Assembly: GCA_043814035.1 (NCBI GenBank)
Contig: JBDRKJ010000012.1
Coordinates: forward strand, 4,028 to 68,027
Direction of reading: 5' to 3'
Source: Candidatus Peregrinibacteria bacterium
GTDB taxonomy: Bacteria > Patescibacteriota > Gracilibacteria > Peribacterales > Peribacteraceae
Length of the DNA: 64,000 nt
This document shows, piece by piece, positions 14,105 through 17,265 of this stretch. The stretch's first letter is position 1; each line of letters begins with the position of its first letter. The position numbers were made by a program, and so were the translations under genes. The notes beneath the pieces are model-generated. The model was not told the DNA's origin, made no database searches, and saw nothing but the letters and a program-made list of their open reading frames with translations.

Positions 14105-14902
14105 CTACGCATAGACGGCAGCATGGTATCGCGTACCAACGGGCTCGTTGTCGATGAGTACACGAGGAATAACATCAGGCTCATCCGCGGCTGCAATAAC
14201 GGACTCGATACCGAAACGAGCAAGGTTTGCAGCAACACGATCTTTACTTCTCATGCCACCCGTTCCATTGCGCGAAGAAGAGTCGTGCAAAAACTGTCGA
14301 TGCTCAGTTGAGCCAAAGGGAATCTCACGAATAAGGCTCTCTGCGTCATCTAAATCCTCCAGAATACCAGGGACACTCGTCAGAAAGAGTACGCGTTTCG
14401 CATGGATCAAGCGGGCAACATCTCCTGCTAAATAGTCGTTGTCAGATTTAAATTCTCTAACAGCAACAGTGTCATTCTCGTTGAAGATAGGGATGCCTGG
14501 TTTCTCTGATGCAAAAATCCGATGTAGTGTGCGATTCAGATTCCTGCGTCGCAAACGACTATCCATATCCGAATGCGTAACGAGAATCTGGTTCGCAATG
14601 CAACCGTGTTTCTGCAGGCTCTTGAGATACTCTGCAAAGAGCATCGGCTGTCCCGCAGACGCATACATCTGCAAAGTGGCAAGATCCTCATCTGGTTGTT
14701 TTGACATACCATAGAGATCGCGACCGGTCGTAGCTGCCCCCGAAGAGACGAGGCCGAGACGAGCAATCATCTTTCGTACAACGGCGAGCTGCAGAGCAAT
14801 CGACGCAACTGCCTGCGTATCGAGATGATCGTCAGAAGTGGTGAGACCATCGGAACCGACTTTTATGACTGCCGTGTCAATGACTTTTCGGCGATTATGC
14901 AT
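14105..14902 (-). CDS. proB: glutamate 5-kinase (amino-acid-kinase fold, no PUA domain)
   Basis: VIKVGSDGLT, VSSGA..GR, PIFNENDTVA, DNDYLAG and NGTGGMRSK align with ProB motifs. I chose the ATG at 14902 because the tracked N-terminal extension covers a terminator hairpin. Confidence 0.78.
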   Translation of the reverse strand: MHNRRKVIDTAVIKVGSDGLTTSDDHLDTQAVASIALQLAVVRKMIARLGLVSSGAATTGRDLYGMSKQPDEDLATLQMYASAGQPMLFAEYLKSLQKHGCIANQILVTHSDMDSRLRRRNLNRTLHRIFASEKPGIPIFNENDTVAVREFKSDNDYLAGDVARLIHAKRVLFLTSVPGILEDLDDAESLIREIPFGSTEHRQFLHDSSSRNGTGGMRSKDRVAANLARFGIESVIAAADEPDVIPRVLIDNEPVGTRYHAAVYA

Positions 14903-15110
14903 GGGAGAGAAATGGAAATGGAATACAAAAAATCCGGGCTTCAACCCGGAATTAGCTTGGGAGCAGGTGCCCCCGCAAACTTTAAAAGTTTACACAGGCA
15001 GCACCTCCCCCGCTCGCGGCGGAGTAATGATGTTGCCCGACAGAGTCACAGAGAGTGACATCACGTGCGCATCCTACGGATGGACATAGAGGGCGTCAAT
15101 GAAAAAAGGC

Positions 15111-15746
15111 CTACAGATCGTCCCGCAGGCTCATATCAATACGAACCGGGTGACCCTTTTTGCCGCACAATTCCTCGATGCGGCGAAGGGTGATGGCCTG
15201 TGTGCCATCCACCTGCCTGCGAATGCAATCACAAGCACTGAGGGCATTGTTGCCGAGGCACATGCCCAATTCGGGCAGAAGGCCGTTGAGCCCGCCTTTG
15301 GAGCAATCGCGTATATGTTGCAACGCTGCCAGAAGAGAAATCGCTTCTGGTGCATCCTGAGACTCAGAAGCAATCCGGGACGGGGACAATGTGTTGGTAG
15401 GCATGACAGAGGGGGGAAGATCGCGATGCCGGAGAGCGACAATCGCATGGATCATCTGGCAGATGATGGCTCTGCGCTCTTCAAGATCGTTGATTGCGAG
15501 TAGCGCGTTCACCATGCTGCGTGCGTTCTGCGCGTCGTTCTGTAATCGAAGAAGGGAGGCAATGTTTGGCGAGACAGTGAGATGGTGGCGTTTACATCCC
15601 TGCTCTAATTCTCGTGCCGCACTCCAGAGGAAGCATGCGTCGGCTACGGAGTACTGCCCGAGCCGGTCGACAGGCAGGTCTTTTTCGGTTGCAGACACAC
15701 AAGATTCGGATATGTCGGGCGGATGAGAGAGGACAGCGATACTCAT
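15111..15746 (-). CDS. hypothetical protein (211 aa)
   Basis: ATG at 15746 directly after the leader terminator. No recognisable motif. Confidence 0.5.
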   Translation of the reverse strand: MSIAVLSHPPDISESCVSATEKDLPVDRLGQYSVADACFLWSAARELEQGCKRHHLTVSPNIASLLRLQNDAQNARSMVNALLAINDLEERRAIICQMIHAIVALRHRDLPPSVMPTNTLSPSRIASESQDAPEAISLLAALQHIRDCSKGGLNGLLPELGMCLGNNALSACDCIRRQVDGTQAITLRRIEELCGKKGHPVRIDMSLRDDL

Positions 15747-15765
15747 GGGTGAATGGAAAATCAAA

Positions 15766-15906
15766 GTAAAAAAACGCCTTCCATTGGGGGAAGGCTCGAA
15801 TGCATCTGAATGTCCACGAAGATTACTTCAGATCATACGGCTCCTTCCCCGCAAGATAGGGGGTAAAGAAGAAGCCGTAGAAGTAAGATTGGCGATGCGC
15901 CATGTG
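15766..15906 (-). promoter_or_regulatory. structured 5' leader L1 (candidate attenuator or riboswitch) ending in an intrinsic terminator
   Basis: Minus strand has stems acggcttc/ggagccgt, cccc/gggg and atctgaa/ttcagat. The terminator is gccttcc-cccaat-ggaaggc plus U7 (15768-15795), 21 nt before the ATG. It is paralogous to L2. Confidence 0.55.
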
Positions 15907-15938
15907 ACGGATGGAGTGTAAAAGAACCGGCATCACTG

Positions 15939-16253
15939 TCAATGCACCTTTCCATTGCCGTTGCCATTGGCTGATCCGTTCTGCAGATACCCCCAAAGCT
16001 TGCGATTTACATCGGTGGAGACATGGTAGATACCTCCCAATCCCTGGGAAACCCGCGAAGCAATCGCCTTGCGGGCAGAGGGGCTGCGGCCGAGAACGGC
16101 GATCATCGCCGAGCGGAAATCAGGGAGCTCCTGCTTGCCGATGGTGAGCTTGTTACCCGCAAAATAGAGTTCCCCGAGTGCCTCCGACAAATCCACGGAA
16201 CAGCGATGAGACGGGGAAGGCTGAGATTCATGATCGGTAGAGAGAGAATCCAT
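15939..16253 (-). CDS. hypothetical protein (104 aa)
   Basis: I chose the ATG at 16253 (MDSLSTD...). The tracked upstream 27 codons overlap the leader terminator. Confidence 0.45.
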   Translation of the reverse strand: MDSLSTDHESQPSPSHRCSVDLSEALGELYFAGNKLTIGKQELPDFRSAMIAVLGRSPSARKAIASRVSQGLGGIYHVSTDVNRKLWGYLQNGSANGNGNGKVH

Positions 16254-16261
16254 CGAAAAAT

Positions 16262-16402
16262 AGAGGAATAGAGAAAAAACCTCTCCACCACTTGGGGAAG
16301 GCTCCGAACGTCTGAGTAAATTTAATTCAGACACATCGGCTCCTGCCCCGCACTAAACGGGAAGGTATAGAAGCCGAAGGCAAACGTCTGAATAGACATG
16401 TG
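16262..16402 (-). promoter_or_regulatory. structured 5' leader L2 (paralog of L1) ending in a hairpin plus U-run
   Basis: Minus strand has stems tcggcttc/ggagccga, cccg/cggg and gtctga/tcagac. A bulged hairpin plus tttttt (16274-16301) follows, 20 nt before the ATG. Confidence 0.5.
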
Positions 16403-16449
16403 CAGTCACACTTTACTTCGAATAGTGATGCTGTCAATGTCAGCCTCGT

Positions 16450-17265
16450 ATGGTTTCACTTCCTGATGAGATTCGGCAATTCTGCTCGATGCATGGCCTG
16501 AAACTCAATACGAACATCGGACAGCATTTCCTTTTGGATTCTTCTATTCTGGACCGTATTGTCGAGAGTGCAGATATCCTCAAGACCGACACCATCGTGG
16601 AAGTCGGACCGGGTATCGGCGTACTCACCCGAAAACTCCTTGAGCGCGCGGGATCTGTCATCGCTATCGAGCTGGATGAGCGCATGATTCCGCTGCTCAC
16701 GGCATTCATCCACGATGATCCAAAATTGACAATCACTCACGGAAACGCCCTGCATGTCTACATGCCCGAAGCACCTTACAAAGTCGTCGCCAATATCCCC
16801 TACCACATTACTTCCCCACTTCTGCGACACCTCTTTCTCGAATCAAAACGCACGCCCACGACTCTTACCCTCCTCATGCAACGGGAAGTCGCCGAGAAAA
16901 TCTGTGACGCAGAAGATGCCGGCATGCTCACAATTCTCGTTGGACTCTTTGGAACCCCAAAGATCATTGCGCGCGTGCCACCGGAGGCGTTTCTCCCCCC
17001 GCCCAAGGTAGACTCGGCAGTCCTGCACATCGCATGCTTTCCAGAGGCGCTCACAGATCGCGAAACCATAGAACAGCTCTTCACATTAACCAAAATCGCA
17101 TTCGGGCAGAAACGTAAAATGCTCCGCAATACCTTGGGGGCGTTCCATGGGGGAATGGAACGCCTTGCAGCGCTTGGCATAGCGCCAACACGCCGCCCAC
17201 AGACACTTTCGGTACAGGAATGGATCGCACTCGCACGCGCATGGCCGGATGATCGTGGTGCATGA
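16450..17265 (+). CDS. rsmA: 16S rRNA (adenine1518/1519-N6)-dimethyltransferase
   Basis: GQHFLLD, VEVGPGIGVLTRKL and ANIPYHITSPLL are KsgA/RsmA motifs. Confidence 0.93.
   Translation: MVSLPDEIRQFCSMHGLKLNTNIGQHFLLDSSILDRIVESADILKTDTIVEVGPGIGVLTRKLLERAGSVIAIELDERMIPLLTAFIHDDPKLTITHGNALHVYMPEAPYKVVANIPYHITSPLLRHLFLESKRTPTTLTLLMQREVAEKICDAEDAGMLTILVGLFGTPKIIARVPPEAFLPPPKVDSAVLHIACFPEALTDRETIEQLFTLTKIAFGQKRKMLRNTLGAFHGGMERLAALGIAPTRRPQTLSVQEWIALARAWPDDRGA

Follow-up and report, generated by a model that had tools for sequence, protein, structure and literature searches.

Known leader-peptide attenuators

In the published model of the pheL leader, control of transcription rests on the pairing of segments 1:2, 2:3 and 3:4, and pheL has been found almost only in Gammaproteobacteria (PMC3082878). 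Attenuators of the trpL type are known from Enterobacteria and from Corynebacterium and Streptomyces, and classical attenuators outside Proteobacteria can be found by comparative genomics (PMC1262725). Our literature search retrieved no report that joins CPR bacteria or Peregrinibacteria with leader-peptide attenuation.

Here we analyzed two leaders, L1 and L2, in a 64-kb stretch of DNA from a Candidatus Peregrinibacteria bacterium (contig JBDRKJ010000012.1; the whole stretch is called the window below). Their layout matches the pheL model, and they are very probably classical leader-peptide (ribosome-mediated) transcription attenuators that sense charged aromatic tRNAs. As in pheL-pheA (and pheM-pheST), a short leader ORF, whose Phe codons cluster on segment 1, is followed by the 1:2, 2:3 and 3:4 pairings, a Pro codon stands beside the Phe run within the pairing region, and in relatives of the window's genome the target is prephenate dehydratase. 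Unlike pheL-pheA, L1 and L2 match no Rfam leader family even at E <= 10, encode peptides of 25-26 codons with interspersed Phe/Tyr(/Trp) in place of the run of 7 Phe, and have a leader ORF with almost no 5' UTR and no Shine-Dalgarno (SD) sequence. They also differ in an extra hairpin (P3) that carries the stop codon, in their occurrence in Peregrinibacteria, and in their targets in the window, which are proteins without recognizable function. With the trpL-type attenuators they share the four-segment logic, whereas the regulatory codons (Trp only in trpL) and the targets differ, and there is no homology to L1 and L2. The leaders are a family-specific addition to the classical leader-peptide attenuators, in which the mechanism is the textbook one and the version is undescribed. 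The coordinates of the features are summarized in Table 1.

Table 1. Positions in the window of the leaders L1, L2 and L3, their parts and the genes that follow them
Feature	Position	Strand	Description
L1 leader	15768-15942	minus	promoter-like site, structured RNA, and hairpin with U-run upstream of ORF1
L1 promoter-like site	15915..15942	minus	TTGACA 15942-15937, 16-nt spacer, TACACT 15920-15915
L1 leader-peptide ORF	15823..15903	minus	26 codons + TAA, MAHRQSYFYGFFFTPYLAGKEPYDLK, 4 Phe + 4 Tyr
L1 5' hairpin	15890-15903	minus	UGGCG-CAU-CGCCA
L1 stem 1:2	15837..15878	minus	P1 ACGGCTTCT (15878-15870) : AGGAGCCGT (15845-15837)
L1 nested P2	15863-15847	minus	CCCC/GGGG
L1 segment 2	15850-15843	minus	includes GGGGAAGG
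L1 hairpin P3	15804..15833	minus	ATCTGAA...TTCAGAT; leader stop 15825-15823 inside
L1 segment 3	15794-15787	minus	CCTTCCCC; alternative partner GGGGAAGG
L1 terminator	15768..15795	minus	GCCTTCC 15795-15789, loop, GGAAGGC 15782-15776, T7 15774-15768
ORF1	15111..15746	minus	211 aa; N-terminal ~105 aa is the helical family found after L1-type leaders in relatives
L2 leader	16274-16437	minus	promoter-like site, structured RNA, and hairpin with U-run upstream of ORF2
L2 promoter-like site	16410..16437	minus	TTGACA 16437-16432, 16-nt spacer, TAAAGT 16415-16410
L2 leader-peptide ORF	16322..16399	minus	25 codons + TAA, MSIQTFAFGFYTFPFSAGQEPMCLN, 5 Phe + 1 Tyr
L2 5' hairpin	16382-16399	minus	AUGUCU-AUUC-AGACGU
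L2 stem 1:2	16336..16377	minus	P1 TCGGCTTCT (16377-16369) : AGGAGCCGA (16344-16336)
L2 nested P2	16361-16347	minus	CCCG/CGGG
L2 segment 2	16349-16342	minus	includes GGGGCAGG
L2 hairpin P3	16310..16332	minus	GTCTGA...TCAGAC; leader stop 16324-16322 in loop
L2 terminator	16274..16305	minus	segment 3 CCTTCCCC 16301-16294, segment 4 GGTGGAGAGG 16289-16280, T6 16279-16274
ORF2	15939..16253	minus	104 aa; family conserved downstream of L2-type leaders
L3	14927..15099	minus	weak covariance-model match; TTGACG-17-TAGGAT (15099-15071), stems like P1/P2/P3
L3 leader ORF	15061-14990	minus	MSLSVTLSGNIITPPRAGEVLPV
L3 5' hairpin	15043-15061	minus	GUCAC-ucucu-GUGAC
L3 stand-alone terminator	14950-14933	minus	CCGGG/CCCGG, then U-run
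Glutamate-5-kinase-like gene	14105..14902	minus	AA_kinase (Pfam); downstream of L3

Homology and distribution of the leaders

The preliminary description of this DNA had proposed, from a set of shared sequence blocks, that L1 and L2 are homologous and adopt one fold. Both proposals were borne out. The pairwise alignment gave a column identity of 75-77%, and the common fold, in which an outer stem (P1) surrounds the small hairpin P2 and is followed by hairpin P3 and a last hairpin with a U-run, was more stable than those of shuffled sequences (z = -4.4 for L1 and -2.9 for L2). The arrangement CGGCTTC-N10-40-GGAGCCG occurs exactly twice in the 64 kb, both times in these leaders, against an expectation of 0.05. 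The hairpin and U-run that had been placed 20-21 nt 5' of each ATG were also recovered. The scan of L1 returned GCCTTCC-CCCAAT-GGAAGGC followed by T7, the last U (15768) being 21 nt upstream of the ATG of ORF1 (15746), and the terminator stem of L2 is bulged, with 8-12 bp, and is followed by U6. A hairpin with a U-run is present in the homologues of L1 and L2 as well.

The preliminary description had assigned the leaders to no known riboswitch class and had asked for a scan of Rfam with covariance models, and the scan agreed with this assessment in giving no family. At the gathering threshold, cmscan of the whole window detected two tRNAs only and no leader or riboswitch family; at E <= 10, the region 14900-16900 gave only chance-level matches to OmrA-B and Clostridiales-2. 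The covariance models of the Rfam amino-acid leader families (Phe_leader, Trp_leader, His_leader and others) did not match L1 or L2.

We searched for homologues with two covariance models, the first of which covered a 96-nt core while the second was built from 26 sequences. With the 96-nt core model, no copies beyond L1 and L2 were found in the 1.23-Mb genome of the window. Of the eight further genomes of the genus, seven had two tandem copies about 500-1100 nt apart, as did genomes from several additional genera of the family. When the second model was applied to 401 genomes of the class, the window's genome and 40 more of its family were matched, whereas only one of the 339 genomes outside the family was, so that homologues are known from 41 sampled genomes of one Peregrinibacteria family. 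The order of the locus is syntenic, with the divergent rsmA followed by the L2 gene, the L1 gene, in some cases the L3 gene (see below), a gene for an SLH-domain protein and one for a UvrD-like helicase. In dozens of genomes the leaders are always co-oriented with the ORF and lie 20-60 nt 5' of its start, and the identity of the ORF varies.

Alternative pairing

The leaders can be divided into four segments. The aromatic codons of the leader ORF lie in segment 1, which makes up the 5' side of P1. Segment 2 (GCGGGG.AGGAGCC) comprises the 3' sides of P2 and P1. Segment 3 has the sequence CCTTCCCC, and the 3' arm of the terminator constitutes segment 4. In L1, GGGGAAGG of segment 2 is the exact complement of segment 3, and in L2 segment 3 likewise has an alternative pairing with segment 2, which forms an antiterminator.

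The preliminary description had noted compensatory changes between the two sequences, had suggested the antiterminator GGGGAAGG:CCTTCCCC, and had called for homologous leaders and a test of covariation. The homologues were found, and the 26-sequence alignment covaries in both helices. For P1, P2 and P3, 90.9% of the cells were paired, double changes were seen at 9 pairs, and none of 500 shuffles and no slid register matched this result. The changes noted from two sequences held in the 26 homologues: the outer pair of P1 is AU in 11 and UA in 8, and the closing pair of P3 is GC in 11 and AU in 9. For the 2:3 antiterminator, 93.3% of the cells were paired with double changes in 5 of the 8 pairs; none of 500 shuffles was as good, and the pairing was better than all slid registers. 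The suggested antiterminator is thus upheld by exact complementarity and by covariation. Of the two possibilities raised at the outset, riboswitch or attenuator, the attenuator is supported by the covarying antiterminator, and the riboswitch is disfavored by the conserved, aromatic-rich ORF on segment 1 described below.

Leader peptides

The preliminary description had not mentioned the short ORF of each leader, the promoter-like site of the TTGACA-16-TAnnnT form or the third copy, L3. The short ORF begins at the ATG of 'cacATG', a block conserved at the 5' end of both leaders. An ORF from a conserved ATG, 19-22 nt 5' of the structural core, was found in all 25 first-round homologues and in 22 further genomes, and of the 47 leaders examined nearly all keep the equivalent frame open from an ATG in the corresponding position. 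The peptides are 20-27 residues long in 45 of the 47, and 25-26 residues long in 33. Aromatic codons make up 307 of the 1223 in-frame codons (25.1%), compared with 3.2% and 6.5% in the other frames and 7.7% in the proteome, part of the Phe excess being imposed by a P1 strand rich in pyrimidines (CUUCUUC). Codons for Phe, Tyr and Trp interchange at equivalent positions in distant homologues (GFYWFPY, GAYWYPF, SFWFSF), and therefore the amino acid class is conserved and not the nucleotides. L2 is mainly Phe-coded, and L1 is coded by Phe and Tyr. Since the conserved Phe/Tyr(/Trp) ORF sits exactly on segment 1, the sensor is most likely the translating ribosome and not a ligand pocket.

A Pro codon is near-invariant in the peptides, and a C-terminal AG.E(P) motif is kept in most leaders. 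Both would suit arrest by the nascent peptide, as in TnaC and SecM, with a tail such as ...P(F/Y)xAG(K/Q)EP acting instead of a shortage of charged tRNA. However, the codons of the motif are the RNA strand GCGGGG.AGGAGCC, which forms P1/P2 and the antiterminator, so that the conservation of AG.E(P) is explained by RNA pairing. Moreover, a ribosome arrested at the motif would cover segment 2 and favor termination, and what varies with the target gene is the content of aromatic codons. We consider such an arrest very unlikely.

A new riboswitch, or a leader that binds a protein or tRNA, would share with an attenuator the covarying structures, the terminator/antiterminator alternative and a free RNA mostly in the terminator state, and the lack of a match to any known family would be natural for it; the ligand or factor would stabilize P1/P2 and select the terminator, and the mini-ORF would be incidental. 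The best-conserved nucleotides, however, are those of the pairing strands and not of loops or junctions. We looked for unpaired positions conserved as a possible ligand-binding core and found none: the loops (those of P2 and P3 vary freely) and junctions are variable, and conservation lies in the pairing strands and the reading frame. A riboswitch would also leave unexplained the promoter-proximal ATG, the open frame, its fixed length and the 25% of aromatic codons in frame. This explanation was rejected on the conserved, aromatic-rich, promoter-proximal ORF, and we give it very little probability; a false lead, that L1 and L2 form a new riboswitch class, is removed.

Promoter-like sites and the start of the leader

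Each leader is preceded by a promoter-like site, the -10 element of which ends 11 nt (L1) or 10 nt (L2) before the leader ATG. The arrangement of a TTGACA-like element, 16 nt and TAnnnT was found in 40 of 44 homologous leaders, and in 36 of these 40 the -10 element ends 8-12 nt before the ATG, so that the leader mRNA would have almost no 5' UTR. The putative transcription start sites of L1 and L2 are placed from the promoter consensus only. Translation signals are atypical in the window's own genome (G000): SD-like words were not enriched before the starts of about 1200 long ORFs (13.6%, compared with 16.6% in a control window), and TAnnnT was sharply overrepresented 6-9 nt upstream of the ATG, which suggests that many mRNAs of this genome may be leaderless. 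The near-absent 5' UTR of the leader ORF fits a genome without an SD signal. Because the leader AUG has no SD sequence and is partly in a 5' hairpin, its efficient use by initiating ribosomes is an assumption based on the leaderless signal seen across the genome.

As for that hairpin, L1, L2 and L3 each have a small one at the 5' end, which includes the leader AUG or directly follows it, and the sequence of which differs between the copies (Table 1). These hairpins might time initiation on a near-leaderless mRNA.

Since a promoter-like site and an intrinsic terminator belong to every unit, the leaders might instead be genes for stand-alone small RNAs of about 135 nt that act in trans, their place before ORFs being incidental. 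Terminated leader transcripts are expected in any case. Against this stand the constant orientation and the spacing of 20-60 nt before varying ORFs in dozens of genomes, and the covariation of the antiterminator, which would be purposeless in a constitutively terminated small RNA. We rejected this explanation on these two grounds and give it an extremely low probability.

Proposed mechanism

For attenuation by a leader peptide, we propose the following course of events. A sigma-70-type promoter would start the transcript a few nucleotides before the AUG, with almost no 5' UTR, and a ribosome would translate the peptide of 25-26 codons, whose Phe/Tyr codons occupy segment 1 (5' side of P1). When charged tRNA is plentiful, the ribosome would reach the stop codon in P3, and segment 2 would be covered or re-paired with segment 1; segment 3 (CCTTCCCC) would then pair with segment 4, and the hairpin with its U-run would terminate transcription about 21 nt before the gene. 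A ribosome stalled on the aromatic codons would occupy segment 1 and leave segment 2 to pair with segment 3 (GGGGAAGG:CCTTCCCC), and this 2:3 pairing would block the terminator so that the downstream gene is transcribed. In this scheme it is inferred that the peptide is translated, that translation is coupled to RNA polymerase and that the system responds to starvation.

In silico folding was consistent with this course of events. The ribosome was modelled by holding the leader single-stranded up to the leading edge of the ribosome, followed by minimum-energy folding. The antiterminator was the predicted minimum-energy fold with the A site on codons 9-14 of L1 (YGFFFT) and on codons about 5-13 of L2 (TFAFGFYTF). 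In both leaders, the terminator was the minimum-energy fold when the A site lay on later codons or on the stop codon, and also in the free RNA. Most of the homologues tested folded like L1 and L2 under the modelled ribosome. Note that the thermodynamic model is only approximate, because in several homologues the free RNA already forms the antiterminator.

Ribosome-coupled transcription attenuation thus probably operates in Peregrinibacteria, a CPR lineage, and the leaders provide a sequence-based handle on regulation in unculturable organisms. Any gene behind such a leader is predicted to be switched on when the charging of Phe or Tyr tRNA falls, and the leaders flag small-protein families of unknown function and orphan pathway enzymes as putative members of a response to aromatic amino acids.

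Genes behind the leaders

The preliminary description had found no recognizable function in the genes behind the leaders. This stands for the window, in which ORF1 and ORF2 have no match to a family or fold, and does not extend to relatives, in which the same leaders precede enzymes of the aromatic pathway. ORF1 and ORF2 each belong to a conserved family, and neither matched Pfam or NCBIfam; Foldseek searches of the PDB with their AlphaFold models (pLDDT 81 for ORF1 and 72 for ORF2) gave nothing below E = 1. Paralogy of ORF1 and ORF2 was ruled out (BLASTP E = 13; hhalign probability of the two families 0.15%).

Whereas ORF1 has 211 aa here, its counterparts in sister genomes have about 105 aa; that of G004, the closest genome, has 106 aa. 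The C-terminal half of ORF1 resembles an extension or a fusion with a small ORF that stands separately in G007 and G008.

According to Pfam and BLASTP, the same leaders precede a prephenate dehydratase with an ACT domain in five relatives (G001, G002, G309, G061 and G381) and a DAHP synthase in six (G005, G025, G030, G125, G329 and G185). Since these are the genes behind the leaders of relatives, the sensed signal is taken to be the supply of aromatic amino acids. The leaders before prephenate dehydratase are Phe-only (at most one Tyr and no Trp), whereas all those before DAHP synthase, an enzyme of the common pathway, have Trp or at least two Tyr besides Phe. A codon content that matches the branch of the pathway is the prediction of a charged-tRNA sensor and not of a riboswitch, and the way in which the leader codons track the enzyme speaks against the latter. 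In G001, a DAHP synthase gene directly follows the ORF1-family gene, with no further attenuator core detected between them.

In tblastn searches with queries from the same genus, neither DAHP synthase nor prephenate dehydratase was found in the window's genome. Chorismate synthase was not found in any of the nine genomes of the genus, the window's included, which makes orphans of the enzymes that follow the leaders in sister species. In some species of the genus (G000-G008) these leaders stand before DAHP synthase, prephenate dehydratase-ACT or the glutamate-5-kinase-like protein, all of kinds that are classically feedback-regulated, and these enzymes lack the remainder of their pathways.

The third copy, L3

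Downstream of ORF1 lies L3, a diverged copy followed by the glutamate-5-kinase-like gene, the best NCBIfam match of which is TIGR01027 proB (170 bits, below the cut-off of 186 bits). The L3 peptide has no aromatic codons, and its T-P-P(-P) motif, TPP(P)RAG, is kept in relatives. In the models, the L3-type leaders of G030 and G035 behaved as a simple attenuator with a stall window ending at the Pro codons. In the window's genus, no antiterminator was found that breaks the CCGGG/CCCGG terminator of L3, which was formed in every modelled state. Furthermore, proA was not found in any of the nine genomes of the genus, so that a link of L3 with proline has no pathway support. Because the extra terminator is always formed and proA is absent, proline sensing by L3 is possible but unproven.

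The two or three attenuators near rsmA could together be a charged-tRNA-sensing starvation regulon of an auxotroph, in which small proteins would acquire or respond to aromatics and L3 would be re-coded for proline. This idea, which we put forward as tentative and regard as rather doubtful, is based on a genus without chorismate synthase and proA; its targets would be the orphan gatekeeper enzymes, namely DAHP synthase, prephenate dehydratase-ACT and the glutamate-5-kinase-like protein. The same slots interchangeably hold three unrelated families of proteins of about 100 aa without a known fold. If such a regulon exists, these would be small proteins with a new function in episymbiotic CPR bacteria, and the TPP motif of the L3 peptide would mark a re-coding of the shared scaffold for proline sensing.

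Insertions in terminator loops

GC-rich palindromic hairpins are inserted in the terminator loops of some homologous leaders, L008 (G007, L1 and L2), L009 (G006, L2) and L013 (G031_a). The L2 leaders of G007 and G006 carry an identical insert of 26 nt (GCCACGCCTTTCGCGAAAGGCGTGGC), which resembles a small, palindromic mobile element that tolerates, or makes use of, the loops of terminators.
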